From Candidatus Electrothrix yaqonensis (GTDB lineage: Bacteria; Desulfobacterota; Desulfobulbia; Desulfobulbales; Desulfobulbaceae): a stretch of 32,000 nucleotides of DNA. Where the stretch lies: the NCBI GenBank assembly GCA_047651235.1, contig CP178758.1:1710001-1742000 (forward strand), read 5' to 3'. Below, one piece after another: positions 1,867-32,000 of this stretch (position 1 is the first letter of the stretch; each line of letters opens with the position of its first letter). Made by a program: the position numbers and the translations under genes. The notes below the pieces were generated by a model. The model ran no database searches. It saw nothing but the letters and a program-made list of their open reading frames with translations, and had not been told where the DNA came from.

Positions 1867-3204
1867 TCAGCGAACAGCTTTTTTGAGATTCACCCCGATT
1901 GCTCCTGTAAAATCTGCCGAATCAACCAGCGCCCCGTCCAATCGCGCCTCGGTAAGGTCTGCTCCGGTAAAATCGGCAAGATATAAATCAGCCTTGCGCA
2001 AATCAGCCTTTTTCAGATTGGCCCCGGTCCATTTGGTCCCTTTCAGATTCGCTTGCCGTAAATCCGCCTCTTCCAGATCCGCCCCTTGGAGATCGGCCCG
2101 TTCCAGATCCGCTTTTTTCAGCTTTGCGCCCCGCAGGTCCGCTCCGGCCAAGTCGCAGGCCACACAGCGCTGTTCATCAAGCAGCTTATCAACCAGCGCC
2201 TGCTGTTTTTCCCTGCTCTGCTCCAGCGTTTCCGCAGTATAGGTGACGTTTCCCTCCACCTTCCCCTGCCTGCCCGCAGGTTCCTGAACTGCCTCTTTTT
2301 CTGATTCCGCAGCCTTGGGGATCTTCGGCCTCTCTGACCCGGTGCCGACCGATTTTTCCTCCAACTGGCCCTGCTGCGGCGCTGCGGTAAGTTCAGATTC
2401 ATCAGGTTCAGCCGCAGCCGGAATTACCGCCTCCTGAATGGCAGCAAGGTCTTTCGGGGCAACAGTGGTCGATTTCTTGTGCAGCAGTTCGTGAACAACT
2501 ATCGGCTGTTCCGATTTTTTTTCCTGTTGCCGGTCCGCCTCCGGGGAGGGCCGCATTGTCCGACCTGTCCGGACAGGTTTTTCGGAATCTGTGGAGCCTT
2601 CGGAACGTACCGTAGGGGCCGGAAAAAAAACCGGTTGAGCCTCAGTCGCATCTTTTACGGCTTTTTTCTGCACTCTCCGATCATCTGCCGGAGCTGCCGC
2701 ATGTGTCTGCCGTGAGGCTTGTGCCGGATGGTTTTTCCCGGTCGTTCCGCCGGATGTCTTATCTGACGGAACGACCGGTTCAGGTGCAGATTCAGGTATG
2801 TAGGGCTGCTCCTTGGGGATTTCGCTATCCAGCACAGCCTCCTGCAGATAGGCCCCTGCCAGCTGTGCCCCGGTCAGGTCCGCACCTCTGAGGTCGGCGC
2901 TGGCAAAATCCGCCCCGCCCAGTGCTGCTCCGCGCAGATTGGTATTCCGCAAATCCGCCCCGGAGCAGTCTGCCAGATGCAGCTTGGCTCCGGAAAGATC
3001 AGCTCCCTGCAGATCAGCGCCGCTCAAATCCATTCTGACCAGCACGGCACCGTGCAGATCACACAGAGGACATGCGTTCTCCCGGATCAGCCTGTTGACA
3101 TTCTTCTGAACCTTGGCTGCTGAAGAGCCGGAAGATTCCGCAGCAACGGCAGTGCAGCAGCACAGCAGGGCTCCGCAGACAAAGATGTTCGTCAGTTGTT
3201 TCAT
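1867..3204 (-). CDS. Secreted pentapeptide-repeat protein (two repeat blocks flanking a low-complexity P/E/K/A-rich centre)
   Basis: ORF 1867..3258. The preferred start is ATG 3204-3202 (AGGAAG RBS), giving signal peptide MKQLTNIFVCGALLCCCTAVAAE. A(D/N)LxG pentapeptide runs occur at both ends (ADLQGADLSGAKLHLADCSGADLRNTNLRGAALGGADF... and ...ADLRGAKLKKADLERADLQGADLEEADLRQANLKG...). Confidence 0.8.
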   Translation of the reverse strand: MKQLTNIFVCGALLCCCTAVAAESSGSSAAKVQKNVNRLIRENACPLCDLHGAVLVRMDLSGADLQGADLSGAKLHLADCSGADLRNTNLRGAALGGADFASADLRGADLTGAQLAGAYLQEAVLDSEIPKEQPYIPESAPEPVVPSDKTSGGTTGKNHPAQASRQTHAAAPADDRRVQKKAVKDATEAQPVFFPAPTVRSEGSTDSEKPVRTGRTMRPSPEADRQQEKKSEQPIVVHELLHKKSTTVAPKDLAAIQEAVIPAAAEPDESELTAAPQQGQLEEKSVGTGSERPKIPKAAESEKEAVQEPAGRQGKVEGNVTYTAETLEQSREKQQALVDKLLDEQRCVACDLAGADLRGAKLKKADLERADLQGADLEEADLRQANLKGTKWTGANLKKADLRKADLYLADFTGADLTEARLDGALVDSADFTGAIGVNLKKAVR

Positions 3205-3232
3205 GCTGTTCTTCCTGTGCCATTGCTCCTGA

Positions 3233-3712
3233 TCAACCGGCATCCTGCGGCCAGACAAGTTTCCGGTAAATCCAGCCGGTCAGTTCAGGGTGCTGAATCT
3301 TCAACCAGTCCCCTTCCCTATCCTGGATCTTCAAAATAACGTCGCGTACCGCCTTGCCCACTTTGTCGTAGTTTGTCCCGGGACCTGACCTGATATTACA
3401 CTCATCAACCGTGACAATGACATAAGGGGCTTTTGAAACAAGGCCTGCATAAATCCACCCCTTATCGCGTTCATAATCAGCAACCTTCAGCCACTTTTCT
3501 CTGCGTTTCAGAACCTTGAGCGGATATCCGGAAGGCAGCTCAAAAAGGACCTCATACTTGGTTCCCGGACCTGAACGGAGCCGCACACCATTCTTTTTCA
3601 CCGAGACAAAATCAGCCGCAGCAGCGGCTCCTGCATTAATATAGATCAGCGACAGCAATGCCCCTGAAAGAACGCAGAATCTCAGTAACTTCTTGAGAAC
3701 TCGGTATTGCAT
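3233..3712 (-). CDS. Secreted protein with two bacterial SH3 (SH3b/SH3_3) domains
   Basis: ORF 3233..3775. The likely start is ATG 3712-3710 (GAGGAG RBS), giving MQYRVLKKLLRFCVLSGALLSLIYINAGAAAAA as signal. Two blocks of the type V(R/N)(L/I)RSGPGT(K/N)Y...W(L)K(V/I)...GWIY are present. Confidence 0.75.
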   Translation of the reverse strand: MQYRVLKKLLRFCVLSGALLSLIYINAGAAAAADFVSVKKNGVRLRSGPGTKYEVLFELPSGYPLKVLKRREKWLKVADYERDKGWIYAGLVSKAPYVIVTVDECNIRSGPGTNYDKVGKAVRDVILKIQDREGDWLKIQHPELTGWIYRKLVWPQDAG

Positions 3713-5940: not shown

Positions 5941-7257
5941 TTAGCGGAAGCGCGGCGACCAGCGCGGATATGACTGATTCCCATCAAGCGTAAACAGCGA
6001 GCGCATTCCCTCCCCGTTGGCAAAGGCAGCACAGAGCTTCATCCTGCCGTTTTTTTTCAGGACAAAGGCAATCTGTTTACCGTCCGGAGACCATGTCGGC
6101 GACTCATAACTGCCGGGACCGGACGTTATCCGGGTAGCTGAACCGCCTCTTACCGGCACTGTAAAAATATGATACTCTCCATTGCCGACAAGACGGGTAT
6201 AGGCGATTTTGTCCCCTCTGGGCGACCATGATGGTTCAACATTTTCCTTGCCCTGTAAAGTCAGGCGCTGTACCTGCAGCGTATCTATCCGCATAATATA
6301 GACCTGCGGACTGCCGCTGCGGTCGGAAACAAAGCAGATGGCCCTGCCGTCCGGGGAAAAAGACGGGGACACGTTAATTCCTGCCTTTCTGGTCAGCTGC
6401 TTGAGGATCTTTCCTTCCATATCGATCAGATACAGGTCAGGATTGCCGCCCCTGCTGAGGGTGACAACAGCAGCACGACTGTCCGGTGTAAAAGCCGGGG
6501 CAAGATTCATCCCCCTGCGTCTGGACATGGTACGGGTCCTACTGTTCTGGTCAAGCTCCGTAATGTACAGATCCTGATTTCCCCGATGATAGGAGGAATA
6601 GGCAAGCTGCAGCCCGTCCGGCGTGAAACGCGGCGAGACACAGAGATGCCGATGACGGGTGATCTGGCGGACATGACGGCCGAGCACATCTGCCAGATAT
6701 ATTTCCTTGCGTCCGGTCGCATCAGACACAAAGGCGATCGCACTTCTGGAAACGCCCGGTTCGCCGGTAAATTCTTCAATCATGGCGTCAGTCAGACGCA
6801 GGGTCATATCTTCCTGTCCGGCAGACATTCCCTTGTAATTTTTTGTTGCCAGCACAGTACCGGCCATGACATCAAACAGGCTCCCGGCAACGGCCATCCG
6901 GTCACCGTTGGCCAGAAAACTTCCCTGAACCACGTAATCCGCACCGAGCGCGCGCCAGTCAGGCTTCGGCTGTCCTGCGTAACGGAGAGGATCGAGAATT
7001 TGCACAAAACCGTGAAAGCGCAGACCGTCGGTCATCAGCTGGGCAAGTTTCTGGCCGGTCTCCGTATTCCGGTTCCCTGAACCGTCGGCAAAAGGAGGCA
7101 CTGCAACCACAAGTTTGCGGCTGCCAGAGTCAAGGATATCAAGATAAATCCGTTCAGCCGCCTGTTCAGCCGCCGTCCGGGAGGGGAACAGCAGCAGACA
7201 CACTGCAGCGCAGCACAGAAACGTCTGATAGCGGAGCACACGTTGAAAAAAAATCAT
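5941..7257 (-). CDS. tolB: Tol-Pal system beta-propeller protein TolB
   Basis: 438 aa with a signal peptide and an N-terminal TolB domain. Repeated propeller blades are visible (PRFTPDGLQLAYSS, PAFTPDSRAAVVTLS..GNPDLYLIDM, PSFSPDGRAICFVSDRSGSPQVYIM, PSWSPRGDKIAYT, PTWSPDGKQIAFV). It sits between tolA and cpoB. Confidence 0.9.
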   Translation of the reverse strand: MIFFQRVLRYQTFLCCAAVCLLLFPSRTAAEQAAERIYLDILDSGSRKLVVAVPPFADGSGNRNTETGQKLAQLMTDGLRFHGFVQILDPLRYAGQPKPDWRALGADYVVQGSFLANGDRMAVAGSLFDVMAGTVLATKNYKGMSAGQEDMTLRLTDAMIEEFTGEPGVSRSAIAFVSDATGRKEIYLADVLGRHVRQITRHRHLCVSPRFTPDGLQLAYSSYHRGNQDLYITELDQNSRTRTMSRRRGMNLAPAFTPDSRAAVVTLSRGGNPDLYLIDMEGKILKQLTRKAGINVSPSFSPDGRAICFVSDRSGSPQVYIMRIDTLQVQRLTLQGKENVEPSWSPRGDKIAYTRLVGNGEYHIFTVPVRGGSATRITSGPGSYESPTWSPDGKQIAFVLKKNGRMKLCAAFANGEGMRSLFTLDGNQSYPRWSPRFR

Positions 7258-7377
7258 TGCATCTCACAAAAAAAAAGTTGGCAGCAGACAACCGGACAAC
7301 AGCTCCTGTCTGACAAGGCATCCGGAAATATTCCGGTACCCAAGATGAAGCAGCTTGGAGTGGATCAGATCACCCCA

Positions 7378-8787
7378 TCAGTTCACTCCCCTTGGGGTGA
7401 AATTCAGCACAAATTCCAAGGTAGCCCTGTTGATAAGCGCAGGAAAACTCGGCATCGGCGCTGAGTTTCGCAGAGCTTTTATCACGGACTGATCAAAAAA
7501 GCTGTCCCCGGATTTTCGCTCAATCCGCATGTTTTCTATGGAACCGTCCCGACGGACAGTCAGTGCAATAATTGTACTGAGATTCGGTCTTGTTTTAACG
7601 ATTTCAGGCAGCTGCCAGTGACTGCTTATTCTTTCGCGCAAAAATATACCGTACTGTCTGAGTGCTGCAGGGTTGGTTCCTCCGCCGGAGCTGCCTGCAC
7701 CTCCATAGCCGCGGGAATATCCTGTGCCGGAACCGCCACTGCCTCCGCCGCCCGGCCCGAAGCCGGAACCGCCGGTGGACAGCGGAGCGTTGATATCTGC
7801 AACAGCCTCCGAGACCAAGGCAAGCTCCCGTCTGGCCCGTTCAGCCTCAAGCCTAGCCTGTTCAGCCTGCTGTTCCAGACGCCTAGCCTCGGCAATTCTC
7901 TGCTTTTTCAGCTGCTCGGCCCGTCTTCTTTCTTCCGCCAGCTTTTGTTGCCGTTCCTGTTCGTTCCGCTTTCTCTCAGCTTCGGCCAATTCTTTCCGCC
8001 GCTCCTGCGCTTCCCGCCTTCTCTCGGCTTCAGCCAGTTTCTGCCGCCGTTCCTGTTCTTCCCGCTTTTTCTCGGCCTCGGCCAGTGTTCTCTGCCGTTC
8101 CTGTTTTTCCCGTCTTTTCTCGGCTTCAGTCAATTCTTGCCGCTGTTTCTGTTCAGCCAGCTCCTTTTTACGCAGTACTTCTGCTTCGGCCTGTTTTTCC
8201 TGCTCTTTCACTTCAGCCAGCCGGGTGTCTTCGGCCAGCTTCTTCTTCCGGTATACAGGCCGGAGTGAAATCGGGCGCGCCTCTACAGCGGGTGCCTCTG
8301 TGACAGATTCAACAACCGGTTCAGCCGATGCGGAAGAAACAATCGGTTCCGCTTCCGGCGGCACAGCAGGCAAAGGCTCTGCTTCCGGTACTGCCTCTGC
8401 GTTCATCTCCAACACCGGCTCCGGTCCGCTTTCAGCGGCAACAGGTTCCGGTTCTGCCGCCTGTACAGCAGCCTGTTCCGGAAGCTCCTGCATCTCCATT
8501 TTCTGCACCTGCACCTGTTCATCGCTGTTTTGAGCAGGTCGTTCCAGCGACCCTTCCGGCCCTCCCACAGCTGCCATCCCCAGATCTGATGACGGCAGGG
8601 CAAGCAGATCCACAGTAATTACCTCGTCCGGACTGATCCTGTCCCTGACATCCGGCAGGAACACAGCACTGACAACAACGACACAGTGCAGGATAAGGGC
8701 CAAGTTCAACGGTATTATCCAATTCGGCATTTTTTCCCGCTGTTCCAGGAAAGTCTGCCACGTATCGCTGCAGTACGCCCTATTCAT
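7378..8787 (-). CDS. tolA: TolA (TonB_C-type C-terminal domain, single N-terminal TM, long K/E/R/A/Q helical region, Gly-rich linker)
   Basis: The TM segment is WIIPLNLALILHCVVVVSAVFL. The central region has LAEAE(K/R)(K/R)RE.QER repeats. The C-terminus ...IALTVRRDGSIENMRIERKSGDSFFDQSVIKALRNSAPMPSFP is TonB/TolA-III-like. It lies between tolR and tolB. The start is ambiguous: 8787 or ATG 8730. Confidence 0.75.
   Translation of the reverse strand: MNRAYCSDTWQTFLEQREKMPNWIIPLNLALILHCVVVVSAVFLPDVRDRISPDEVITVDLLALPSSDLGMAAVGGPEGSLERPAQNSDEQVQVQKMEMQELPEQAAVQAAEPEPVAAESGPEPVLEMNAEAVPEAEPLPAVPPEAEPIVSSASAEPVVESVTEAPAVEARPISLRPVYRKKKLAEDTRLAEVKEQEKQAEAEVLRKKELAEQKQRQELTEAEKRREKQERQRTLAEAEKKREEQERRQKLAEAERRREAQERRKELAEAERKRNEQERQQKLAEERRRAEQLKKQRIAEARRLEQQAEQARLEAERARRELALVSEAVADINAPLSTGGSGFGPGGGGSGGSGTGYSRGYGGAGSSGGGTNPAALRQYGIFLRERISSHWQLPEIVKTRPNLSTIIALTVRRDGSIENMRIERKSGDSFFDQSVIKALRNSAPMPSFPALINRATLEFVLNFTPRGVN
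7927..8166 (-). repeat. About 5 tandem 48-bp units inside tolA, encoding 16-aa K/E/R/A/Q repeats
   Basis: CTCGGC/CTCAGC-initiated units start at 7975, 8023, 8071 and 8119, exactly 48 nt apart. A more diverged unit occupies 7927-7974. Confidence 0.8.
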
Positions 8788-8817
8788 TTTTTCCGCACCG
8801 CCTGTTGAGGACCAGAC

Positions 8818-9243
8818 CTACTCTTTCTCCCTGTCCTCCGGCAAAGTTACCATGCCTAATTTTTCAAAACCGGCCTGTTTTATCGCTGCCATCACCCGGG
8901 CTACCACGCCATACGGCACATTCTTATCCGCCTGCAGATAGACCGGTTCCTGTTTTTTCTCCGGCGGCAGTTTTTCCAGCTCCTGCCGCATCATCAGCAG
9001 AGGTACTGTAACGTCACCAAGGTGTACCTCACCTGCTGCATCAACCTGCACAACCAGCGGCTTCTCCTGCTGGCGCAGGGCCCTGGACGTGGTTTTCGGC
9101 AGGTCAACATCTATCCCCTGAGTCATCATGGGAGCAGTGACCATAAAAATAATCAGCAGCACCAGCATGACATCCACAAGCGGTGTTACATTGATTTCCG
9201 CCACCATTCCCCTGCGGCCTTTTTTTCCTGCTGAAGCACCCAT
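8818..9243 (-). CDS. tolR: TolR (ExbD/TolR family biopolymer transport protein)
   Basis: 141 aa. MVAEINVTPLVDVMLVLLIIFMVTAPMMTQGIDVDLP is the ExbD/TolR TM signature. It lies between tolQ and tolA. Confidence 0.9.
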   Translation of the reverse strand: MGASAGKKGRRGMVAEINVTPLVDVMLVLLIIFMVTAPMMTQGIDVDLPKTTSRALRQQEKPLVVQVDAAGEVHLGDVTVPLLMMRQELEKLPPEKKQEPVYLQADKNVPYGVVARVMAAIKQAGFEKLGMVTLPEDREKE

Positions 9244-17974: not shown

Positions 17975-20926
17975 TTAATAGTGCGCATCATAGTCTTCGG
18001 CTTTAATAAAACCTTGGTAATAGTTGGCTGTTTTCAGGATAGGTCGCACAGTTACACCTTTAGAAGTACTGGTGACTCCGATTTCCTGTCCGTCTCCTGT
18101 TGCTATGGCTATATGTCCATAACCCCAGTTTGAACTGTCAGGAAGGTAACAGATTGCATCACCGCGTTCTGGAGTCCCGGATGTCCTCATATATCCTTTA
18201 GTTTTATAATCATCGCATACTTGATAAGCATGTCCTTTACCTGTTTGCTTGTCGAACATTACCCGCACAAATACTGCGCAATACGTTATCAGCTTGCCGT
18301 CTGACCATCCTACCCATTCGTTGTTTCCATCTGTAGATATTGTGCGCCCAATCTCAAGCTCTGCCCGGTCAGCAACTTCATCGCCAAGGGTTGATGTGAC
18401 CACTTTGCCGAACTCAATAGCATCAATGGTGCCTGTTTTTTCTGCTGCACGATAGGCCAAGACAACCAGTTCGGAACGATTGAGCGGCATATCCGGGCTT
18501 GATCCATTGGTGATGCCTTCATCAACCAAGAACTGCACCGGGTCGGCTACTGTCTGTCCGTAGAATATCTTGACGATGTAGTCCATCACTTCACTTCTGA
18601 GGACTTCATCACCCGCCATACTCTCTGTTACCTCAATACCCATTTTTTGAGCTTCAGCGATATAGTAGCTGTACCACGGCTCAATATCCTTCGGTCGATT
18701 ATCAGTGGTAACATAATCGTATGCATAGATAAGCACTTTCAGAGTTTCTGCCAGATTGGTTGCCTTGGTGGGCATAAACAGATTTTCTCCATTGACGGAT
18801 TGGCCGATAACGATTCCTGCGCTACAGAAAGCGTTAACTTCATCGGCATAGAAAGCTGTCTGATCAACATCCGGGAATGTGCATCTGATATCTTTACACT
18901 TATCATTTACACCGGGAGACATGACTTTACAGCCATAGGCACATTGCTCCTCAATCGAATATACTCCATCTGTACAGCGATAGAGAGTAGTCTCGTTCTG
19001 CCCTAACCCACTGTCACCGCAATACAAACCGTTGCCATACGGACAGAATGTCGGCCCATTGCCATCGGAGACAACCACAGGCAATGTTCCGGTTAACTGG
19101 ATATTGCTTGGACTATGGTAGTAGCTACATTTTACCTTCACTGTCTGCCCAGCAGATCCTGAGTTGGCCTGCACAAGCCCGTCGCCAAGAGAGGTCACAT
19201 ACATAGTGGGTGTTGCCAACCAAGAACACTCATCCGTAACATCTATGGTTTCAACAACGTCTCCGGGTTCAGGAAGAGAACCTGTCGTTATATTCTCGGC
19301 AAGATCGGCCACAGCCGTATATGTTGCCGTTTCGCCAGCGTAAAGGGTTCCGTTCGCTGTAACCCTTACTTCTTTCAAGACCAGATCGTCATCAGACGGA
19401 GCATCAACAGGCGGAATTTCCGTTCCATGCCATTGATGTTTACTCTCGTCACTACTGAAATCGTACTCTGAGCCAAAGACGGTGCCGAACGGAACAGTTA
19501 CTCCAGTACAGTTAGAGGTAGCGTAGGCAGCCATATGAAGATGAGCATAGGGGCCAGAACTGTCACAACCTGTCGGGCCGCACAGTTTACCGATAGGTGT
19601 CTTCTGTGCAATTACAAGTTTTGGATTAGCACTCTTCCTGTCACTGTTGCTTTTCATATGCCCGAACTTAACAGAACCGATCTGCACTCCATGCCCGTTT
19701 GATACAGGAACTTTTAACTGAAAACAGGTAATATCTTTATCGGTAGTACCATTCCAAAGAATCATGCCCTTTGCCGGTGCAACAACTGTTTTGTCTTCCG
19801 AACCACCAGAATTTCCCCAACAGCCTGTATTCCCAAGATTACCTGAACCATATGCAAAATCAAAAGAATGGATCAGAGTACCTTCGTGCGAGATATCTGT
19901 ATTATATCCCTGACAAATCTGCCACATTTTATCTCTTTCATCAAATGGAAAAACAAAATTACCAGTAGACTGTGAATCACTGACAGTCGCATTCGTAAAA
20001 TGCCAAACATCCGCTGTGGCAGTTTTGGACATTGTATTTATATCCGTGGGGATCCTTTCTTCATCAAGATAAACCGCCAGATCATATTCCGATACATCCG
20101 AGGGCAGTGTTTCCGGTGAGTAGGGAAGAGTTATCACCAGAGGTACAGTAAATTCCGCCCCATCAGGACTTAATTCATAGTTCGATGACAGAGCAGGCTT
20201 CTCGACCACCGCACCGGTTTCCTCATCCATAACCTCGACCGTATACTTTGTCTCCTTGACCGAAATCACCATAGGTTCGGAAACCGCTCCGGCGGGAATC
20301 ACCAAAGAAAATGTATCGCCAAGAACTATCTCGTTCTCTTCATCCGGCAACGCCACAACAGCCGCCATATCTTCTGTCAACGGAGTAACCTCCGCTGTCT
20401 GCACCCGGATATTCTGTCGCAGCTTATAGAAAGACATAAAAGTAATCTGCCTGTTTTTCCCTTTGCCGCTGGAGCCGATTTTCTTTTTCCGCAGAGCGAG
20501 CTGCCTGCGCAGGTTAAGATTCAGGGTCAGTGACGAAAGAAATCCGCCCTCCTGACCGAATATTTTCTGCCCCTTCAGCTTGATCAGATCGTGCGGCGTG
20601 ATCAGAGGGAAAGGTTCATCATCCACCGTAATGGTGTTATTTTCCCCCAGCACCAGCCGCAGTTCCTTGGTTTTTTCCGGCAGCAGGACCTTGCCGGTCA
20701 AATCCACTTTGCCGTCAGCCAGATCAAGCAGGTTCAGCTGCATCGGTCCGCTGGCGGTGACACAGCCTTTTCTGGCGGCGCAGGCTTCAATCCGCAGCAC
20801 ATCCAGAGAAATTTCCGATACCGCATCGACATCGAATTTCGGTTGCTTTGCCCACGCATTATTCCCCAGGGGAACAGCAAGTGACAACAGCACCAGCCAA
20901 CACATCATGCTTTTCAGCCGTAACAT
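17975..20926 (-). CDS. 983-aa secreted multidomain protein: DUF4382-like N-domain, ZU5-like segment, M23/LytM-like peptidase, Cys-rich module, SLH-like segment, C-terminal CHAP/NlpC-like domain
   Basis: ATG with GAGGTG RBS and signal MLRLKSMMCWLVLLSLAVPLGNNAWA. The M23-like block is LIHSFDFAYGS...VVAPAKGMILW...GSVKFGHMKS...IGKLCGPTGCDSSGPYAHLHMAAY (HLH motif). The SLH-like block is FPDVDQTAFYADEVNAFCSAGIVIG...LNRSELVVLAYRAA. The CHAP-like block is LITYCAVFVRVMF...RGDAICYLPDSSNWGYGHIAIATGDGQEIG (Cys...His). Domain calls are from motif memory only. Confidence 0.8.
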   Translation of the reverse strand: MLRLKSMMCWLVLLSLAVPLGNNAWAKQPKFDVDAVSEISLDVLRIEACAARKGCVTASGPMQLNLLDLADGKVDLTGKVLLPEKTKELRLVLGENNTITVDDEPFPLITPHDLIKLKGQKIFGQEGGFLSSLTLNLNLRRQLALRKKKIGSSGKGKNRQITFMSFYKLRQNIRVQTAEVTPLTEDMAAVVALPDEENEIVLGDTFSLVIPAGAVSEPMVISVKETKYTVEVMDEETGAVVEKPALSSNYELSPDGAEFTVPLVITLPYSPETLPSDVSEYDLAVYLDEERIPTDINTMSKTATADVWHFTNATVSDSQSTGNFVFPFDERDKMWQICQGYNTDISHEGTLIHSFDFAYGSGNLGNTGCWGNSGGSEDKTVVAPAKGMILWNGTTDKDITCFQLKVPVSNGHGVQIGSVKFGHMKSNSDRKSANPKLVIAQKTPIGKLCGPTGCDSSGPYAHLHMAAYATSNCTGVTVPFGTVFGSEYDFSSDESKHQWHGTEIPPVDAPSDDDLVLKEVRVTANGTLYAGETATYTAVADLAENITTGSLPEPGDVVETIDVTDECSWLATPTMYVTSLGDGLVQANSGSAGQTVKVKCSYYHSPSNIQLTGTLPVVVSDGNGPTFCPYGNGLYCGDSGLGQNETTLYRCTDGVYSIEEQCAYGCKVMSPGVNDKCKDIRCTFPDVDQTAFYADEVNAFCSAGIVIGQSVNGENLFMPTKATNLAETLKVLIYAYDYVTTDNRPKDIEPWYSYYIAEAQKMGIEVTESMAGDEVLRSEVMDYIVKIFYGQTVADPVQFLVDEGITNGSSPDMPLNRSELVVLAYRAAEKTGTIDAIEFGKVVTSTLGDEVADRAELEIGRTISTDGNNEWVGWSDGKLITYCAVFVRVMFDKQTGKGHAYQVCDDYKTKGYMRTSGTPERGDAICYLPDSSNWGYGHIAIATGDGQEIGVTSTSKGVTVRPILKTANYYQGFIKAEDYDAHY

Positions 20927-24195: not shown

Positions 24196-24850
24196 GTAGA
24201 AAACCACCCCCTCTGGGGGTGGTCAGAGTTCAACGGCTTTGCCGGTTGAACCTCAAAAGCTCATAATAAGCTCCATGACGTGTTGTCCCCACAACAATAT
24301 CAGGAGCAAATTATGAGTCGATTTAAAAAACTATCACATACAATTTGGCATTGCCAGTACCATATCGTCTGGGTTCCCAAGTATCGATTAAGAATACTTG
24401 AGGGTGAAGTCGGACAGGAGGTGTTCAATTGTACCTGCGCATTCAGCGAGCAGAAAAAGTGTGAAGTGATTGAGCTGAATGTTCAAAAAGATCATGTTCA
24501 TATTATCGTGATGATTCCTCCGAAACTGTCGATTTCGGATTATATGGGCATCATTAAAGGCAGAACCGCGATTCGTGTATTCAACAAGTTTCGCAAATTG
24601 AAGAAAAAACCGTACTGGGGTAATCGTTTTTGGGCACGCGGCTATTGTGTCGATACTGTAGGTTTAGGCGCTGAGAAAATACGTCGCTACGTAAAGTATC
24701 AGGAAGAAAAAGAACGCCAAGCCGAACGTAACCAACTACGGTTATTCTAATTAAATCGGGGACAACACCTCGCCCCCTCTGGGGGCAAGAGGCATCCTTA
24801 TCCCCTTTTAGGGGTAAACCCAATACCACCCCCTTTGGGGGTGGATTATT
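24196..24850 (+). mobile_element. IS200/IS605-family insertion sequence (tnpA only); ends approximate
   Basis: A single Y1-transposase gene is flanked by subterminal palindromes: CCACCCCCTCTGGGGGTGG (24204-24222) on the left and CCACCCCCTTTGGGGGTGG (24827-24845) on the right. Extra hairpins lie at 24227-24250 and 24768-24792. The ~0.65 kb size fits IS200. Confidence 0.75.
24313..24750 (+). CDS. tnpA: IS200/IS605 family transposase TnpA (Y1 HUH)
   Basis: ATG 24313 (CAGGAG RBS). MSRFKKLSHTIWHCQYHIVWVPKYRLRIL...VQKDHVHIIVMIPPKLSISDYMGIIKGRTA...WARGYCVDTVG...IRRYVKYQEE carries the HUH (HVH) motif and the catalytic Tyr region. Confidence 0.9.
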   Translation: MSRFKKLSHTIWHCQYHIVWVPKYRLRILEGEVGQEVFNCTCAFSEQKKCEVIELNVQKDHVHIIVMIPPKLSISDYMGIIKGRTAIRVFNKFRKLKKKPYWGNRFWARGYCVDTVGLGAEKIRRYVKYQEEKERQAERNQLRLF

Positions 24851-24860
24851 TATCAAGAAG

Positions 24861-26438
24861 TCAGTAGAACCTGATTTCCACGCCGCTGGTGCGCAGAAAT
24901 TCTTTCACCTGACCGACAGGAACTTCTTTGCGGTGGAAGATCCCGGCTGCCAAAGCGGCCTCGGCATCTGTTTCTGTGAACACTTCGAGAAAATGCGCAG
25001 CGCTGCCGGCGCCGCTGGAGGCGATAACCGGGATGGTCACTGCCTCCTTGACCGCATTGATCAGTTCAAGATCAAAGCCGGAATTGGTGCCGTCCTTATC
25101 AATGCAGTTGAGCAGGATTTCACCTGCTCCCAACTGTTCACAGACCCTGGCCAGAGTAACCGCATCAAGGTCACGTCCTTCACGCCCGCCCCTGACCGTA
25201 CACTGATACCAGCAGTACTGTTCGCCGTCCGGGCCGGGAAAGGCTGTTTTCATAACCGGATGCGGCGTATCCTTTGGCGAATGCACGTATACTCGCCGGG
25301 GATCCACGGAAATTACCACGGCTTGATTACCGTAGACCCGGGCAATCTGCTCAATAGAACTCAGCCCGGTGGATTGCCCGCTCCGGAGCACCTCCTCCAC
25401 GATCAGGACCGCGTCCGAGCCGATGGATACCTTGTCTGCGCCGGAACGGAAGTATTCCGAAGCCACCTCAAGGGCGGAATAAAACCGACCGTTGCAGTCA
25501 GTAAAATCGCGGATACCGCCGCCGATGGTGAGCGGGACAAAGACATTTTCCGAGGTCTTCTGCAGCACCTCAAGCATGGGCATATCCTCAAGCGGAAAAT
25601 CGCGGAAGGCAGTGATATTGAGAAAGGTGATCTCGTCTGCGCCCTGTTCATAGTAATCCCGCGCAAGCTCCACCGGTTTGCCCAGATTGCGCACGTCGCC
25701 GTCTTCCCGCACATCATACTGATCCCCCTTGGTCACCACCAGGTCGCCCTGATCATTGGACCGGACATCAAGGCAGGCAATAATGCGTTCAGCCAGTTCA
25801 GTCTTTGCCGGACATGCCTGCGGAACTACGGCCTCCCGACTCGAATCCAGAAAATTCTCCAGTAGCTGCAGACCGGCCTTGCCGCTTTTTTCCGGATGAA
25901 ACTGGGTGGCAATAATATTCCCCCGCTGCACAGAACTGACAAATTGGCCGCCGTAATCCGTCATGGTCAGCACATCATCGGCATGTTCTGTTTCCACATA
26001 ATAGGAATGGACAAAATAGACTTTTTCACTGCCGGTGAAGCCGTTGAACAGACGGGAGGGCTGCTGCACCCGGATACCGTTCCAGCCGATATGAGGAACC
26101 GCCAGCTCTGTGTTGAACCGCCGGACCCGGCCTGGAATGAACCCTAATCCCGGTTCATCCGGTGCCTCTTCGCTGGACTCGAACAGGGCCTGCAGAGCAA
26201 CACAGATTCCGAAGAATGGCCGGTCATCATGCAGGTAGCGCAGCAGCGGTTCGACAAGCCCCTGTTCCCGCAGGGTCCGCATCATGGCTCCGTAATTGCC
26301 CACCCCGGGAAAAACCAGACGTTCCGCCCGGTCAATATCAGCGGCTGAACTGACTCTGACCACTGTTTCACCGAGACGCTCAAGGGCATTGACAACCGAA
26401 CGGACATTGCCAGCACCGTAATCAAGCAGGGTAATCAT
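24861..26438 (-). CDS. hisHF: Fused imidazole glycerol phosphate synthase (HisH glutaminase + HisF cyclase in one 525-aa polypeptide)
   Basis: The N-terminal HisH part is MITLLDYGAGNVRSV...PFFGICVALQ...PHIGWN...QFHPEKSG. The linker and HisF barrel are RIIACLDVRSNDQGDLVVTKGDQYDVRE...VRNLGKPVELARDYYEQGADEITFLNI...PLTIGGGIR...GADKVSIGSDAV...AVVISVDP...CTVRGGREGRDLD...GAGEILLNCIDKDGTNSG...PVIASSGAG. Confidence 0.9.
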   Translation of the reverse strand: MITLLDYGAGNVRSVVNALERLGETVVRVSSAADIDRAERLVFPGVGNYGAMMRTLREQGLVEPLLRYLHDDRPFFGICVALQALFESSEEAPDEPGLGFIPGRVRRFNTELAVPHIGWNGIRVQQPSRLFNGFTGSEKVYFVHSYYVETEHADDVLTMTDYGGQFVSSVQRGNIIATQFHPEKSGKAGLQLLENFLDSSREAVVPQACPAKTELAERIIACLDVRSNDQGDLVVTKGDQYDVREDGDVRNLGKPVELARDYYEQGADEITFLNITAFRDFPLEDMPMLEVLQKTSENVFVPLTIGGGIRDFTDCNGRFYSALEVASEYFRSGADKVSIGSDAVLIVEEVLRSGQSTGLSSIEQIARVYGNQAVVISVDPRRVYVHSPKDTPHPVMKTAFPGPDGEQYCWYQCTVRGGREGRDLDAVTLARVCEQLGAGEILLNCIDKDGTNSGFDLELINAVKEAVTIPVIASSGAGSAAHFLEVFTETDAEAALAAGIFHRKEVPVGQVKEFLRTSGVEIRFY

Positions 26439-26848: not shown

Positions 26849-27358
26849 ATGAAGATAAAAACATATTCTCCTGAGATAGAAACGCGAATGCGTAATTTTT
26901 ACGGCAGCCTGTCTGAAAAAGACCGCCGTCGATACGTCGCAGTTGAAGCGGAAAAGTTCGGATACGGCGGCATAACGTATATATGCGACGTGTTGCGGTG
27001 TGATTCTGACCGGGTCCGTCGCGGGATTGAGGAGCTGAAACAGCCTCTGCCTGAAAAAGAAGAACGAATTCGCAAACCGGGCGGGGGACGTAAATCCGTC
27101 CTCTCGACCGCCGTCGGCCTTGACGACGCATTTTTCGCGGTGCTGAAAAATCACACGGCGGGATTAGGGACAAACGGTGACACCTCCGAGTTCGGGTGCG
27201 CCTGTATTCGGAACTGGTGGACGACACATGGAAAATCTGAATTCCTCTTCGAGACAGGCCGCAAAACGGCTGACGGTTTTAAAGAAAATATGAAAATTCA
27301 ATTCGACGAGTTTCTGCCGAAGTGGAATTATGCCGCTGTTCCGTCAGGACGGCTTTGA
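26849..27358 (+). pseudogene. Internally deleted ISAzo13-family transposase
   Basis: The N-terminus LSEKDRRRYVAVEAEKFGYGGITYICDVLRCDSDRVRRGIEEL...RIRKPGGGRKSVL...FFAVLKNHTAG matches the ISAzo13 N-domain. The last residues FDEFLPKWNYAAVP match the family C-terminus (...WNYxIxP). The DDE core (~300 aa) is absent from this 169-aa ORF. Confidence 0.65.
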
Positions 27359-27663
27359 ATCCCGTAGTTATTTAATTCCTGTTCCTTGTCGTCTGACAAC
27401 ACTCTTCTATTGATAACAAATAGATTCCTTTTGTTCGTCAGAAGCACCTTGTTGATAGCTGACGATATCTTCTTGTTCATCAGGAACTTTTTTTCAAGAG
27501 TAAACAGACAGTTGTTGATGAACAGGATATCCCGACCAGATCCGTTTAGGCGATCTGGCTTTGCATCTCTTTGGAGCAGATGCCGGAGTTGAACTGCAAC
27601 TGCCGCAGCACACACCGCATGAGCTGCTGGAGTCAGCCCGACATTTTGTTTGATATGTGTTCC

Positions 27664-27731
27664 TGTTGTGCGTATAATATGTGTTGTGCGTATAATATGA
27701 TATGTATACAGTCTGATATGTATACAGTCAA
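27664..27731 (+). promoter_or_regulatory. Two back-to-back tandem duplications: 2 x 18 bp carrying TATAAT, then 2 x 16 bp carrying TGTATACA. Probable promoter/operator of the RHH-RelE operon
   Basis: TGTTGTGCGTATAATATG at 27664-27681 is repeated perfectly at 27682-27699. ATATGTATACAGTCTG at 27700-27715 is repeated as ATATGTATACAGTCAA at 27716-27731. The antitoxin ATG is at 27751. Confidence 0.6.
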
Positions 27732-27750
27732 TTTCAACAAAGGAGCACAC

Positions 27751-28008
27751 ATGTCCAAGACACGATTGAATATAAGCATCGACTACGATCTTGCCGATTT
27801 TATCAAAATTTATGCTCAGGAAAACCGTACAACCGCTTCCGAGGTCATCACACAGTTTATTCTTGGACTGAAACGGAGGAAGTGCCGGGAGCAGACAGAT
27901 ACAGTTCTTGCCGACCCGGAATTTTCTCAAACTCTGACAGAAGTGCATACAAGAATACAGGATGGTTCTGCGCAATGGCATACCTTTGACGAAGTTTTCG
28001 GTGAATAA
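27751..28008 (+). CDS. Ribbon-helix-helix antitoxin (85 aa)
   Basis: ATG 27751 with AAGGAG RBS (internal to track ORF 27571..28008). MSKTRLNISIDYDLADFIKIYAQENRTTASEVITQFILGLKR is an RHH pattern. The stop overlaps the toxin ATG (TAATG). Confidence 0.75.
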   Translation: MSKTRLNISIDYDLADFIKIYAQENRTTASEVITQFILGLKRRKCREQTDTVLADPEFSQTLTEVHTRIQDGSAQWHTFDEVFGE

Positions 28009-28322
28009 TGGAGGTTCGATTTGAAAAGGCGTTTCTGAAGGCCGTCAAAAAACATTCGGCAATCAAAAAGCAGATTGAGCGGAAGGTGCTTCAGATAGTT
28101 GAGCATCCTGTCGAACTGGGCGAGCCGTTAAAAGGTAATTTTCGCGGTTTTTATTCCTGTCCGGTAAAACAGAACTTCATTATCATATATCTGTACTGCC
28201 GGGTTTGCAGGAAAAAGGGCGATGAAAAATATGTTGCCTGTGCGGACTGTTCCGAAACAGCGGATGAAACCGTCAAATTCATCATCGTCGGCCCTCATGA
28301 TGCGGCGTATGGAAAAAAGTAG
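28008..28322 (+). CDS. RelE/ParE-superfamily toxin with an inserted CxxC...CxxC segment
   Basis: MEVRFEKAFLKAVKK...IERKVLQIVEHPVELGEPLKGNFRGFYSCPVKQNFIIIY...VKFIIVGPHDAAY fits the RelE/ParE fold pattern (L.G.l.g.y...v...yRiiY....v.i..vgpH...Y). A ~25-aa insert YCRVCRKKGDEKYVACADCSETADE lies between the last strands. Confidence 0.7.
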   Translation: MEVRFEKAFLKAVKKHSAIKKQIERKVLQIVEHPVELGEPLKGNFRGFYSCPVKQNFIIIYLYCRVCRKKGDEKYVACADCSETADETVKFIIVGPHDAAYGKK

Positions 28323-28327
28323 TATCC

Positions 28328-28561
28328 TTATACCCTCTCTCCCCCCTTCATCACCTCCATCAGCTCATACAGCACCTCCTGCGCCTGCCTCGGGGTCAGC
28401 TCATCCGGATTAATCTCTTTTAACCGGTTTCGCAAAGGATCTTCCTTGGGCGGGAAAAGACTCATCTGGCAGGGATGCTGCTGTGGTCGTTTTTTCGGGG
28501 AGACCGCAATGGTCGGTTCGCCGGTAGCTGTGAGCTTGCCCCGCCCCTGCCGACAGACCTG
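28328..28561 (-). pseudogene. mutS: 3'-terminal remnant of mutS (last ~45-75 codons only)
   Basis: The minus-strand frame, open from 28561, reads ...SPKKRPQQHPCQMSLFPPKEDPLRNRLKEINPDELTPRQAQEVLYELMEVMKGGERV*. This matches the MutS C-terminal tail (Q.SLF......l..ld.D.LTPR.AlE.LYeL). An in-frame stop at 28564-28562 and a plus-strand gene lie immediately upstream. Confidence 0.6.
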
Positions 28562-28583: not shown

Positions 28584-28598
28584 TATGATACTATCATA
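28584..28598. promoter_or_regulatory. Perfect 15-bp palindrome TATGATACTATCATA upstream of the Trypco1-like gene (candidate operator overlapping a -10-like element)
   Basis: 7-bp arms TATGATA/TATCATA flank a central C, 35 nt upstream of ATG 28633. A T8 run and an AAGGAGA RBS follow. Confidence 0.4.
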
Positions 28599-28632
28599 TA
28601 GTTAGGCTTTTTTTTCTCAAGGAGAATCACTC

Positions 28633-29007
28633 ATGACCAAACTGCAACCCATACAACTTGATGACGACACGGTCATCTATATTGAGGCCGATGATAATGC
28701 GCAGGCACCTCTGTCTTCGCCTGCTTCCTCCGGCGAGCAGCAACCGATGGCCAAGGGCGGCAACAGCAGAAGCGGCGCAATGTCTGCTGCGTTGACTCAA
28801 TTTCAATCCATGCAAAACACCATTCGGGGCTACACCACCCAGTCTCTTAACGCATTCCGCAATCTGGCCGGGGCAAATGTGGATAAGGTCACGCTGGAAT
28901 TCGGCATCAGAGTCGGCGGTGAGGCAGGCATTCCTTATGTGACCAAAGGAAGTGCTGACAGTAACATCAAAATCACGGTTGAGTGTTCTTTTCCTAAAGA
29001 AGAGTAG
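28633..29007 (+). CDS. Trypco1-like (CU044_2847-family-like) small protein, 124 aa
   Basis: AAGGAGA RBS. The N-terminus is KLQPIQLDDDTVIYIEADD and the centre is low-complexity. The C-terminus KVTLEFGIRVGGEAGIPYVTKGSADSNIKITVECSF matches the ..vEFG.k.s.eaG...ak....an.kvt... pattern recalled for this family. It lies 21 nt upstream of the caspase-STAND ORF. Confidence 0.7.
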   Translation: MTKLQPIQLDDDTVIYIEADDNAQAPLSSPASSGEQQPMAKGGNSRSGAMSAALTQFQSMQNTIRGYTTQSLNAFRNLAGANVDKVTLEFGIRVGGEAGIPYVTKGSADSNIKITVECSFPKEE

Positions 29008-29028
29008 TCTGAAAAATGGAGAGCTGCC

Positions 29029-32000
29029 ATGAGCCGTGATGCCTTGATTGTCGGAATCAACAGCTATCACCACCTGTCGCAGTTAGCAGCACCAGCCAGT
29101 GATGCGGAAGCGGTTTACCGTCTGCTGTTTCAATACGGCGGCTTTGACAATATCAAACCCCTACCGCTGATTTATGATAATGGCGGAGAAGGCTTTGCTG
29201 TAGGCAAAACTACGTCGCTCAGTCATGAGGATCTGGAAGAAGCCTTAATTGAGCTGTTCAACCCGAAAGGCAGGGCTGCGGAAACGGCCCTGTTTTACTT
29301 TTCCGGGCATGGTCAGCGCAGGGTTCGGGGCGGCATCAGTGAGGGATATCTGGCGACCAGCGACAGCCAGACCAGCGGCGGCAACATGGGCATATCCCTG
29401 GACTGGCTGCGCAAACTGCTGACCGCAAGTCCGGTGCGCAGGCAGATAATTTTGTTTGACTGCTGCTACAGCGGCGAACTGCTCAATCTTGATAAGGCGG
29501 ACCCAAATGACCGGGGCCAAGGCCATGACCGCTGCTTCATTGCCGCCTCCCGAGAGTATCAACTGGCCTATGAACAGAGCAGCGGCAAGCATGGTATCCT
29601 CACCGCAGCTCTGCTCAAGGCCCTTGATCCCAAGGAATATCCCTCCGGTCTGGTGGACAATCATGCGCTGGTGGCGCATTTACAGAAGCACTGGCAGAGT
29701 ACGCTGCAAAGCCCGCTCTGTACCAATTCTGGGGCGCAGATCATCATCACCCGTGATAGAAGCAAAGAGCAGCAAATCGAAATTCCCTATGACTCCAATT
29801 GCCCATATAAAGGACTGAGTTATTTCGACTGCAACGATCACGATGCCGGATATTTTTTCGGGCGCGAATTATTAATCGATCAATTGATTGAGCGAGTGCG
29901 CTCCGGGAACATGCTCGCGGTGCTGGGTCCGTCCGGTTCAGGTAAGTCTTCAGTAGTTCGGGCCGGGTTGCTCTACCATCTGAAACAGGGGGGACGGATA
30001 ACCGGCAGTAAGAATTGGCCGACCTGCATTTTCTCGCCCGGAGAAAAACCGCTGCATAATTTAGCTTGGGCTGTTATCAGCGACAAGACTCCGGACGAAT
30101 TGGAACGCGCCCGAGTTCTGCTGGAGAAGCAGGGCGGTATAGGGTTGGAGCAGTTGCTCCGCGATGAGGAGGGAAGCAGTAACCGGGTGGTGCTGGCAGT
30201 TGATCAGTTTGAGGAGATCTTTACGCTTTGCACAGATAAAGGACATCGGCAGCAGTTTCTGGCCTGTCTGCTTGATGCTGTCAGGATGCCTGACAGCCGG
30301 ATATGTCTGGTGCTCACCATGCGGGCGGATTTCCTGGGCCGCTGCGCTGAACAGGAATATTCCGGTCTGAGCTGCATGATCCAGGAGCATCTGGCAACCA
30401 TCACGCCGATGAACGAAGAGGAACTTCGCGAGGCCATTGTCAGGCCAGCAGAATGCACCGGTCTTGGGGTGGAACCGGAATTGGTCAAGAAGCTTGTTGA
30501 GGAGGTGAAGGATTTGCCCGGCAGTCTGCCTTTGGTTCAGGATATACTGACCGAGCTGTGGCATCGCAATCACGGACAGAAAACAGCCTTGACTCTGAGC
30601 GGATATATTCATCTTGGCGGTATCAGTAAGTTTTTGGGCAGGAGGGCGGACAAGGTGTATGAAGCACTCAAGCCGGAAGAGCAGGTTATAGCCCGGAGGC
30701 TGTTTATTGCGCTGACCCAATTAGGCGAAGGAGCAGAGGATACACGCCGTCAGGTGAGCAAGGAAAAACTGCTGAACAGGCAGGATGTACAAGAAGCAAA
30801 GTCGGTTGATGAAGTTCTTGATAAAATGACCAATGCCCGGCTGATAGTCACTGATGAAGTGCGGGCCAAAGGGGAAGATGCGGGTAGGGCGGTCATTGAT
30901 GTGGCGCATGAAACCTTGATCCGACACTGGAGGAAGCTGCGCACTTGGCTGGATGAAAATCGGGACAATATTCGTTTTCAACGGAGGCTGGAGACAGCAG
31001 CGACGTATTGGAAGGACAGTAACCGACCAAAAGGGCTGCTTTGGCGTTCACCTGATTTGGATCAACTCAAAAAATTTGCTGCAACTGATAGGGAAGAAAT
31101 GGATGCAGTACAGCAGGATTTTTTTGCTGCCAGCCTAAGATCACAACGTAGAGAAAAACTATTTCGTGTTGGTGCGGTGGTGTTCATGATTATGGCTCTC
31201 GCAATCGCTGTTCTCTTTTTTCAGCGAGATGCTGCCCGGCAGAGAAAATTCTTTGAGCAAGAAAAAAAATTTGCTGACGAGCAAACAATATTGATGAAGA
31301 GAGCTGAGAAAAATGAGCAGAAAGCACTTGTTAATCTGACTCGAGCATATGAGGAAAAAGCAAGAAGTTCCTTGCAGGACTCATTTAACGGTGAAAATTC
31401 ATTAGTGAATTTTCAGAAAGCTTGGTTGTATACAATAGAATCTCTAAATCAGAAAATCTCGATTGAAAAGAGTCCGTATAACTCCCTGAACCGGCTAGTT
31501 ACATACAATTTTATCCCGACCCCGAAAGATTATCTCCAAACCAACCCAAGCAGCAAGCAGCTAACCTTGGCCTCTCATCCAGATGCCAAGAATATGGGAT
31601 GGTTTGATCTGCTCAATATCTATCTGAAAGAAGGCCGTGAAAGCCAGCTGTTTAGGGAACTGTATGCGCTTTCCTGGATGGCCTTACCCTATACAAAGGA
31701 AAAAGAAGGCATTGTCCTGAAAATCGACAGAGATGACGACCCGGAATTATGGTCGGAGGGCTATCCCATGTCCGATCCTGCAGAATGGATTGAACAGAGC
31801 TTGGCCAAGGCGTACAATGAAGGCCGGATAGACTTGGAGATTCTCAGGCAAGATAACAAGATAACCGAAAGCAAGTCGGCTGAAATTAAAATCCGAAGTC
31901 TGCTTCTTAAAAGTGAAAAACAAGCCCGTCAGGGAGATTATGCTGAGGCCAGAAAGCTGTTTGAGCAGGCCTTGGCCATAGACGGAGATGGAATGCAGAA
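29029..32000 (+). CDS. Caspase (peptidase C14)-STAND P-loop NTPase (nSTAND1-like) fusion protein with a hydrophobic helix and helical/TPR-like C-terminal region; 3' end beyond the right edge
   Basis: Hand translation from ATG 29029 (GGAGAG RBS) is stop-free through 32000 (990 codons), so it is not in the ORF track. The caspase dyad is FYFSGHG (His94) and ILFDCCYSG (Cys146). CPYKGLSYFDCNDHDAGYFFGRE is followed by Walker A GPSGSGKSS (aa 300-308) and Walker B VVLAVDQFEE. HETLIRHWRKLRTWLDENR follows. The hydrophobic helix is VGAVVFMIMALAIAVLFF (aa 714-731). A TPR-like EKQARQGDYAEARKLFEQALAID sits at the window edge. Minus-strand track ORFs 29245..29679 and 30061..30720 are shadows. Confidence 0.85.
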   Translation, partial: MSRDALIVGINSYHHLSQLAAPASDAEAVYRLLFQYGGFDNIKPLPLIYDNGGEGFAVGKTTSLSHEDLEEALIELFNPKGRAAETALFYFSGHGQRRVRGGISEGYLATSDSQTSGGNMGISLDWLRKLLTASPVRRQIILFDCCYSGELLNLDKADPNDRGQGHDRCFIAASREYQLAYEQSSGKHGILTAALLKALDPKEYPSGLVDNHALVAHLQKHWQSTLQSPLCTNSGAQIIITRDRSKEQQIEIPYDSNCPYKGLSYFDCNDHDAGYFFGRELLIDQLIERVRSGNMLAVLGPSGSGKSSVVRAGLLYHLKQGGRITGSKNWPTCIFSPGEKPLHNLAWAVISDKTPDELERARVLLEKQGGIGLEQLLRDEEGSSNRVVLAVDQFEEIFTLCTDKGHRQQFLACLLDAVRMPDSRICLVLTMRADFLGRCAEQEYSGLSCMIQEHLATITPMNEEELREAIVRPAECTGLGVEPELVKKLVEEVKDLPGSLPLVQDILTELWHRNHGQKTALTLSGYIHLGGISKFLGRRADKVYEALKPEEQVIARRLFIALTQLGEGAEDTRRQVSKEKLLNRQDVQEAKSVDEVLDKMTNARLIVTDEVRAKGEDAGRAVIDVAHETLIRHWRKLRTWLDENRDNIRFQRRLETAATYWKDSNRPKGLLWRSPDLDQLKKFAATDREEMDAVQQDFFAASLRSQRREKLFRVGAVVFMIMALAIAVLFFQRDAARQRKFFEQEKKFADEQTILMKRAEKNEQKALVNLTRAYEEKARSSLQDSFNGENSLVNFQKAWLYTIESLNQKISIEKSPYNSLNRLVTYNFIPTPKDYLQTNPSSKQLTLASHPDAKNMGWFDLLNIYLKEGRESQLFRELYALSWMALPYTKEKEGIVLKIDRDDDPELWSEGYPMSDPAEWIEQSLAKAYNEGRIDLEILRQDNKITESKSAEIKIRSLLLKSEKQARQGDYAEARKLFEQALAIDGDGMQ

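Follow-up and report, generated by a model that had tools for sequence, protein, structure and literature searches.

Small proteins of the Trypco1 family have been described as partners of bacterial peptidases, and a two-gene cassette containing one of them lies at the right-hand end of the 32,000-nucleotide (nt) stretch of Candidatus Electrothrix yaqonensis DNA analyzed here (contig CP178758.1, forward-strand positions 1,710,001 to 1,742,000; hereafter the window, with positions counted from its first letter). The cassette pairs a 124-amino-acid (aa) Trypco1 / CU044_2847 gene (28633..29007, + strand), whose product is a predicted latent membrane-active effector, with a gene for a caspase-nSTAND1-transmembrane-FGE protein (29029..32000, + strand, covering the first 990 of 1272 codons; the last 282 codons and the stop codon lie beyond the window). 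Our analysis favors, at odds slightly better than even (roughly 55%), the reading that the cassette is a two-gene, protease-gated cell-suicide module of the abortive-infection type, carried by a multicellular cable bacterium.

Trypco1 and Trypco2 were named as partners of trypsin-like peptidases in the vWA-MoxR (VMAP) ternary systems, where caspases always accompany an α/β-hydrolase (Kaur et al. 2020; PMC7159879). Our cassette contains the same small-protein family, defined by its co-occurrence with a peptidase gene; however, the Trypco proteins of VMAP systems pair with trypsin, whereas Trypco1 in the cassette pairs with a caspase, with no vWA, MoxR or hydrolase gene. The nSTAND1 domain was defined in a second survey (Kaur et al. 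2021; PMC8195603), which described effector-STAND-FGS proteins whose N-terminal effectors include caspase and which are frequently linked to diversity-generating retroelements (DGRs) and enriched in multicellular bacteria; the term Trypco is absent from its text. The layout of the cassette is identical to that described there, with an N-terminal effector, nSTAND1 and a C-terminal FGS/FGE domain in one protein. Intracellular sensing was proposed for those proteins, whereas our protein, like 92 of 120 homologues, has a predicted transmembrane helix between the NTPase and the sensor. In a further preprint (bioRxiv 10.1101/2023.09.22.558884), Trypco1, Trypco2 and trypsin- or caspase-like peptidases were found around nSTAND1/CLec (C-type lectin) targets of DGRs in Thiohalocapsa and its relatives, and the DGR-diversified nSTAND1/NACHT-CLec 'antigen sensors' reported there also combine nSTAND1 with a C-terminal CLec/FGE domain and have peptidase or Trypco neighbors. 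The architecture is already catalogued (Kaur et al. 2020, 2021), and the cassette joins a family that is both known and very large, one search having scored more than 7,000 relatives, a lower bound.

The experiments closest to the cassette are those of Evans et al. (2025; bioRxiv 10.1101/2025.11.14.688446), who united Trypco1 and Trypco2 under the name 'Pepco' and showed it to be a pore toxin of the β-barrel type, latent until cleavage. SsPepco from Streptomyces subrutilus forms 9-10-mer β-barrels resistant to sodium dodecyl sulfate (SDS), is cut after the conserved Ile97 by the trypsin domain of SsAvs4, and kills E. coli after loss of a charged, Pro-rich C-terminal tail of 2 kDa. Pepco together with protease-Avs4 was toxic only with an active protease, the β-barrels of cleaved Pepco were nonameric or decameric, mutations in the amphipathic helix abolished toxicity, and so did deletion of Pepco in the tested system. 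Cysteine proteases, FGE domains and 'transmembrane STAND ATPases' were named as Pepco partners; the tested Pepco and EACC1 modules responded to phage proteins, the EACC1 modules sharing the logic of a caspase that releases a pore-forming partner, and a broadly acting 'PCaspase' was among the characterized modules, as were gasdermin systems. The original prediction knew of no experimental characterization, a statement that does not hold for the class but does hold for the pairing of Trypco1 with caspase-nSTAND1 itself. PADLOC matched its generic 'caspase' model to the locus, with weak mad3 and mad8 P-loop matches and no Avs model; for lack of a match, assignment to Avs or to any other system named in PADLOC was rejected. 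A further parallel is the bacterial gasdermin with its caspase-like protease, in which a protease-released pore-forming protein kills the cell. A Pfam scan found no gasdermin-like protein in the cassette, and Trypco1 is about one third of the size of a bacterial gasdermin.

Domain layout of the large protein

The large open reading frame (ORF) begins with ATG at 29029, after a 21-nt gap following the Trypco1 gene, and runs without a stop through the 990 codons that remain in the window, just as originally read (at least 990 codons, 21 nt after the small gene). Extension of the contig to the full C-terminus, which had been proposed, was achieved with the public Logan contig L001 (4696 nt; 3631-nt overlap with the window, 0 mismatches, 100% identical). 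L001 completes a protein of 1272 aa that ends in an FGE-sulfatase domain and is 100% identical to the NCBI protein of Candidatus Electrothrix sp. YB6, encoded there on a 3.74-Mb contig. YB6 is a cable bacterium, and its genome paper makes no mention of caspase, defense, phage or toxin (PMC12093952).

The N-terminal Peptidase_C14 (metacaspase-like) domain (aa 5-203; 29041..29637, + strand; Pfam E=3.3e-16, 60.1 bits against a cut-off of 21.4) contains the catalytic residues His94 (29308-29310, in FSGHG) and Cys146 (29464-29466, in DCC), which are invariant in 15-28 homologues and align with HYSGHG and DSCHSG of the metacaspase-1 chains 7qp0 and 4f6o (yeast and Candida metacaspases). A PDB search with the whole large protein as a single sequence recovered the FGE domain only, and the caspase required a profile; with 15 homologous caspase domains, the best match was fungal metacaspase-1 7qp0 (E=4e-4), with the dyad in register. 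The AlphaFold2 model of the caspase domain (predicted template modeling score [pTM], 0.75; predicted local distance difference test [pLDDT], 66) retrieved metacaspases, MALT1, caspase-9 and the bacterial GSU0716 as its top 20 Foldseek matches in the PDB (best E=5e-6, TM 0.54). The caspase fold and its dyad, as originally proposed, were therefore borne out by Pfam, the metacaspase alignment and Foldseek. A related caspase subtype is found in the EACC1-caspase modules, the NCBIfam model of which (caspase_w_EACC1, NF047832) matches aa 4-221 with E=5e-25; however, its 88 bits fall short of the family cut-off (140), and the partner in the cassette is Trypco1, not EACC1. Asp25 and Asp144 line up with the Asp of CIND and of DSC in metacaspases; in the TbMCA2 and Yca1 structures, we take these positions to make up the acidic S1 pocket responsible for Arg/Lys specificity. 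From these positions, the caspase is predicted to prefer a basic P1 residue (Lys/Arg).

Downstream of the caspase lies an nSTAND1 NTPase module (aa 259-668; 29803..31032, + strand), matched by Pfam with E=3.5e-122 and 409 bits over profile positions 1-378 of 379. Its Walker A motif GPSGSGKS (29926-29949, + strand) includes Lys306 (29944-29946), its Walker B motif VVLAVDQFEE (30187-30216, + strand) includes Asp392, and both residues are conserved in 28 homologues; the P-loop STAND module thus stands at the codons originally assigned to it. A predicted single transmembrane helix follows (aa 711-731, LFRVGAVVFMIMALAIAVLFF; 31159..31221, + strand; Kyte-Doolittle 19-residue mean 2.57). The hydrophobic helix lies about 89 aa after an HExL motif, an offset retained in 92 of the 120 homologues, and this conserved post-NTPase helix matches the 'transmembrane STAND ATPases' of Evans et al.

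The predicted extracytoplasmic region starts with a lineage-specific helical stretch (31222..32000, + strand) that is gapped in most homologues; the helical region spans about 280 aa, with a weak TPR-like match near aa 956-987 that is below the Pfam cut-offs. Both the hydrophobic helix and the helical region after it had been anticipated correctly; the helical region, described there as C-terminal, is not the end of the protein, which is formed by an FGE-sulfatase / C-type-lectin-fold domain (aa 1013-1266, outside the window, on L001). This domain matches PvdO (5hha, E=6e-29), human FGE (E=1e-20) and, in the same PDB search, TvpA, a DGR target. Since both catalytic cysteines of FGE are without a counterpart in the alignment to human FGE, we read the domain as a non-catalytic binding module rather than an enzyme, and as the real sensor of the large protein. 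The single helix would place the protease/NTPase part and the lectin-like domain on opposite sides of the membrane, and the need for NTP would put the protease side in the cytoplasm; the predicted topology thus has a cytoplasmic protease and NTPase with the FGE domain across the membrane. In this respect the cassette differs from SsAvs4, which combines a trypsin-like serine protease with a cytoplasmic sensor that binds phage portal protein, whereas the cassette has a caspase and a predicted extracytoplasmic FGE sensor.

The Trypco1 partner and its possible activation

The assignment of the 124-aa gene to Trypco1 / CU044_2847 proved correct, as both Pfam (Trypco1, PF19493; E=1.9e-22, 80.1 bits, cut-off 24.6) and NCBIfam (CU044_2847; E=8.4e-26, 90.5 bits, cut-off 23) matched it above their curated cut-offs, and the protein is identical to the NCBI entry 'CU044_2847 family protein [Candidatus Electrothrix sp. 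YB6]'. A Shine-Dalgarno-like AAGGAG (28620..28625, + strand), read from the sequence, lies 7 nt before its ATG. Farther upstream, in the putative promoter region, 35 nt from the start codon, is a perfect 15-bp palindrome, TATGATACTATCATA (28584..28598), which may be an operator. The palindrome was not found upstream of the tandem relative L083, and a sigma-70 scan gave no + strand promoter at the palindrome region. An inverted-repeat finder was silent on it, the arms being below the minimum length set.

To assess whether the gene pair is conserved, the caspase-domain alignment was scanned against one genome per species, yielding 383 relatives. The 80 best loci, none of them from the YB6 genome, were retained and all their ORFs were searched with a Trypco1 hidden Markov model; 77 of the loci had enough upstream sequence. 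Of these 77, 65 have a Trypco1 gene no more than 600 bp from the start of the caspase gene. In each of these 65 loci, which are cyanobacterial, Trypco1 is on the opposite strand (divergent; one locus, L004, was confirmed by hand), whereas the tandem Trypco1-caspase order, with gaps of 21-55 nt, is found in the window and in the Desulfobacterota-type loci L083, L085/86 and L087/88, of which L085/86 shares the caspase-nSTAND1-FGE layout. Because the adjacency survives this inversion of gene order across phyla, it points to a functional link rather than to operon hitch-hiking. The proposed co-conservation of the pair was accordingly confirmed, in the 65 loci and in L083 and L085-L089.

The Trypco1-less caspases adjoin other conserved small genes without a Pfam match (L044 8617-9953, L046 410-1743, L076 1071-1538 and L080 9490-9948). 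These neighbors are of two types, a tandem pair of 132 aa and 311 aa and a divergent protein of about 152-155 aa, and they may be alternative substrates of the protease.

The AlphaFold2 monomer model of Trypco1 has a poor overall confidence (pLDDT 55.7) with clear secondary structure. Two short strands (aa 3-8 and 14-19) form an N-terminal mini-hairpin, followed by an acidic, disordered linker (aa 23-48, pLDDT <50), a long helix (aa 47-78) that is amphipathic (hydrophobic moment z=2.5), and a long amphipathic β-hairpin (aa 85-120; 28885..28992, + strand) that ends in an invariant VECSF. The hairpin strands (aa 85-100 and 104-119; β hydrophobic moment z=2.6 and 3.5) have perfectly alternating faces, hydrophobic VLFIV/ASIIVCF against polar KTEGRG/DNKTES, and the hairpin, its GGEAG turn and the C-terminal VECSF are invariant across 38-120 homologues. 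The build of the protomer suggests what an oligomeric membrane β-barrel would need. In the linker, position 41 is Lys or Arg in 96% and position 42 is Gly in 96% of 120 homologues, while the rest is variable; Lys/Arg41-Gly42 is thus the only conserved feature in a disordered region of Trypco1. As the protease is predicted to cut after basic residues, we chose the codons for Lys41-Gly42 (28753..28758, + strand), conserved within the disordered acidic linker, as the predicted caspase cleavage site.

The likeness to SsPepco-SsAvs4 is one of organization and build, with a protein of about 120 aa beside a protease-STAND fusion and with an amphipathic helix and amphipathic β-strands. SsPepco itself is a Trypco2 protein (Pfam E=5e-18), and the supplement of Evans et al. 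also speaks of a Trypco2 barrel. The motif common to Trypco1 and Trypco2 spans 15 columns only (KV.LE..G.K.GGEAG), and direct homology of Trypco1 to SsPepco was rejected on the hhalign probabilities given below. In the Trypco2 alignment, a conserved A-R/K-I-R-R motif precedes a tail of 20-60 aa; SsPepco, cleaved after Ile97, has a C-terminal tail of 20 aa, whereas in the Trypco1 clade 2-16 residues follow VECSF. Gating by a C-terminal tail as in SsPepco was judged unlikely, the tail being too short and without a conserved motif. Because the gating tail is nearly absent in Trypco1, the activation step must differ from that of Trypco2. Under our hypothesis, the order of helix and then hairpin left after a cut at Lys41-Gly42 would equal the order of elements in Trypco2.

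The mechanism that we propose for the cell-suicide module is modeled on Trypco2 (SsPepco), for which activation of a pre-formed β-barrel by cleavage has been shown. A ligand, probably an envelope- or phage-derived periplasmic molecule, would bind the lectin-like domain and release the NTP-dependent oligomerization typical of STAND proteins. Oligomerization would bring the caspase domains together and activate them. The caspase, predicted to cut after Lys/Arg, would then cleave Trypco1 at Lys41-Gly42 and remove the N-terminal pro-segment, and the processed helix-plus-hairpin oligomer would permeabilize the inner membrane, killing the cell and protecting the rest of the filament. The order originally suggested, in which a STAND switch activates the caspase, is upheld as the best reading, with the small protein as substrate. 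More tentatively, and with considerable doubt, Trypco1 might represent a second, sequence-unrelated family of protease-gated mini pore-formers, in which an N-terminal pro-segment is cut at Lys/Arg-Gly by a metacaspase-STAND protein with an extracytoplasmic lectin-like sensor and outside-in signaling, which in a cable-bacterium filament would survey the periplasm.

Several points weigh against the proposed cell-suicide mechanism. The experiments of Evans et al. cover Trypco2 with trypsin-Avs4, and none concerns Trypco1 or a caspase-Pepco pair. The Trypco1 profile showed no significant similarity to the single SsPepco sequence (hhalign probability 0.07%), its probability against a Trypco2 profile of 26 sequences was 4%, and Foldseek with the Trypco1 monomer model (pLDDT 55.7) gave no significant structural neighbor (best E=1.3). 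The tail after VECSF has 4 residues in our protein, and the clade has no conserved Ile-Arg motif. The inferred caspase cut at Lys41-Gly42, which would remove aa 1-41, is an argument from conservation. Related caspases without Trypco1 make up 12 of the 77 loci. To our knowledge, outside-in signaling via one transmembrane helix has been established for no STAND protein.

Some of these points would also suit another role for the small protein, namely as a regulator, inhibitor or adaptor of the caspase (a bait or pseudosubstrate), with death or signaling arising from cleavage of cellular proteins by the caspase. The lack of detectable homology to the tested pore-former, the missing C-terminal gating tail and the 12 Trypco1-less caspases all speak for such a role, as does the presence of a broadly acting 'PCaspase' among the modules of Evans et al. 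However, the strong amphipathicity of hairpin and helix, together with the invariance of the hairpin, is more in keeping with an oligomer that inserts into membranes than with an inhibitor, and the tested Pepco system lost its toxicity with its small protein; we consider the regulatory role decidedly unlikely.

Sensor variation and the purpose of the cassette

The sensor end of the family is variable. Homologues with nSTAND1 swap FGE, WD40 or pentapeptide-repeat domains as sensors, pentapeptide repeats being the commonest in cyanobacterial caspase-nSTAND1 homologues. In the relative L089, a divergent Trypco1 gene and a caspase-nSTAND1-FGE gene are followed by bAvd (7265-7609) and reverse transcriptase (RT; 7719-8789) genes, and a 119-nt pair of variable repeat (VR, 7023-7141) and template repeat (TR, 8801-8918) has 12 of 12 substitutions at template adenines, as expected of a DGR. 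The L089 VR also has a 1-nt indel that appears to shift the frame of its last codons.

The DGR-linkage of the systems of Kaur et al. (2021) is frequent but not obligatory, and the cassette, in contrast to L089, has no DGR in the available sequence. No template-repeat copy of the FGE 3' region was found in the 32-kb window or in L001 (218 nt past the gene), and no RT or Avd homologue was found in the same sequence. A Desulfobacter relative with the same layout is also without a linked DGR. The FGE domain as a DGR target was therefore rejected on the available sequence, lacking a TR copy, RT or Avd, and the cassette is, as read from this sequence, a DGR-less member of the family, provided that none acts on it from another part of the genome.

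These observations bear on what the cassette would be for. The same biochemistry might serve programmed cell death, filament fragmentation, kin or non-self recognition, or surveillance of envelope damage instead of phage defense, with the sensor reading periplasmic glycans of the cell itself or its neighbors. Three points favor such a purpose: the concentration of the family in lineages that are filamentous and multicellular (Nostocales, Scytonema, Parabeggiatoa, Desulfobacteraceae and a cable bacterium), the predicted position of the sensor outside the cytoplasm, and the match to nothing beyond the generic 'caspase' model in PADLOC. On the other hand, diversification of the L089 FGE domain by an adjacent DGR fits the tracking of a variable foreign ligand, sensor swapping among close homologues is typical of arms-race systems, and phage proteins are what triggers the Pepco and EACC1 modules tested so far. 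A purpose other than phage defense appears unlikely, and abortive infection is retained in the favored reading of the cassette.

Genomic surroundings

A scrap of the mutS C-terminus of about 45 codons, recognized from its translation, lies just upstream of the cassette (28328..28465, - strand). Within it, nt 28347-28376 recur exactly (30 nt) at 4667-4696 of L001, 218 nt past the stop codon of the large gene, and both copies encode VLYELMEVMK; the 30-nt match is a minimum, since the repeat runs to the last base of L001. The breaks of the two Logan contigs, at 28370 and 28392, are where the edge of a repeat would put them. Because the cassette is flanked by two copies of the mutS 3' end, the arrangement suggests its insertion there, and the true mutS gene would lie beyond the end of L001. 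No tRNA or tmRNA integration site was found in the window.

The duplicated mutS 3' end could also mark the cassette as an inactive passenger of a decaying mobile region with no current function, an impression reinforced by the nearby IS200 and ISAzo13-type insertion sequence (IS) fragments and toxin-antitoxin (TA) modules and by the close Trypco1 relative in L084 without an adjoining caspase. We regard this as very improbable, since both ORFs are intact, the large one over 1272 uninterrupted codons, all catalytic and nucleotide-binding residues are kept, and the translation signals are tight, with the Shine-Dalgarno-like sequence and the 21-nt gap.

In its left half, the window carries ordinary chromosomal sequence, with a Tol-Pal cluster, an FtsJ-type methyltransferase gene, a thioredoxin-reductase-like gene and a two-component regulatory pair; a 463-aa pentapeptide-repeat protein is also encoded there (1867-3258, - strand; E=2e-50). 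From about 16.5 kb rightwards the sequence is a mosaic that includes a PIN toxin gene and zwf. A 983-aa ORF with a C-terminal CHAP domain (17975-20926, - strand; CHAP E=1e-5, with a weak ZU5-like match) has a c-di-GMP-I riboswitch (cyclic diguanylate; RF01051; 21429-21507, - strand; 54.9 bits, E=3e-8) about 500 nt upstream, and looks like a giant c-di-GMP-controlled protein of the peptidoglycan-hydrolase type. Farther right are an intact IS200-type Y1 transposase gene (24280-24750, + strand; E=6e-38) and a short fragment of an ISAzo13-type DDE transposase gene (26849-27358, + strand), with a long ORF between them (24861-26438, - strand) read, from its letters, as a fused hisH-hisF. A DUF6364-like antitoxin candidate overlaps a ParE/YafQ-like toxin candidate by 1 nt (27571-28322, + strand), both with matches below the Pfam cut-offs; the toxin candidate has an unusual Cys-rich C-terminal half. 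The neighborhood had been described as a defense island. TA modules and IS fragments are indeed present, but they are interleaved with zwf and the putative hisH-hisF ORF, and the Tol-Pal region is ordinary, so that the description is accurate only in part.

If neither the cleavage nor the topology prediction holds, the locus is one more member of a very large family. If the processing at Lys41-Gly42 is true, there would be more than one way of licensing a protease-gated pore toxin, and if the extracytoplasmic sensor topology is true, some bacterial NLR-like proteins would read signals outside the cytoplasm. The cassette is a compact example of the pairing of a caspase with Trypco1, with two genes in 4.3 kb and no DGR, and it adds a cable bacterium, a multicellular and electrically conductive member of the Desulfobulbaceae, to the carriers of caspase-STAND-lectin immune-like modules.

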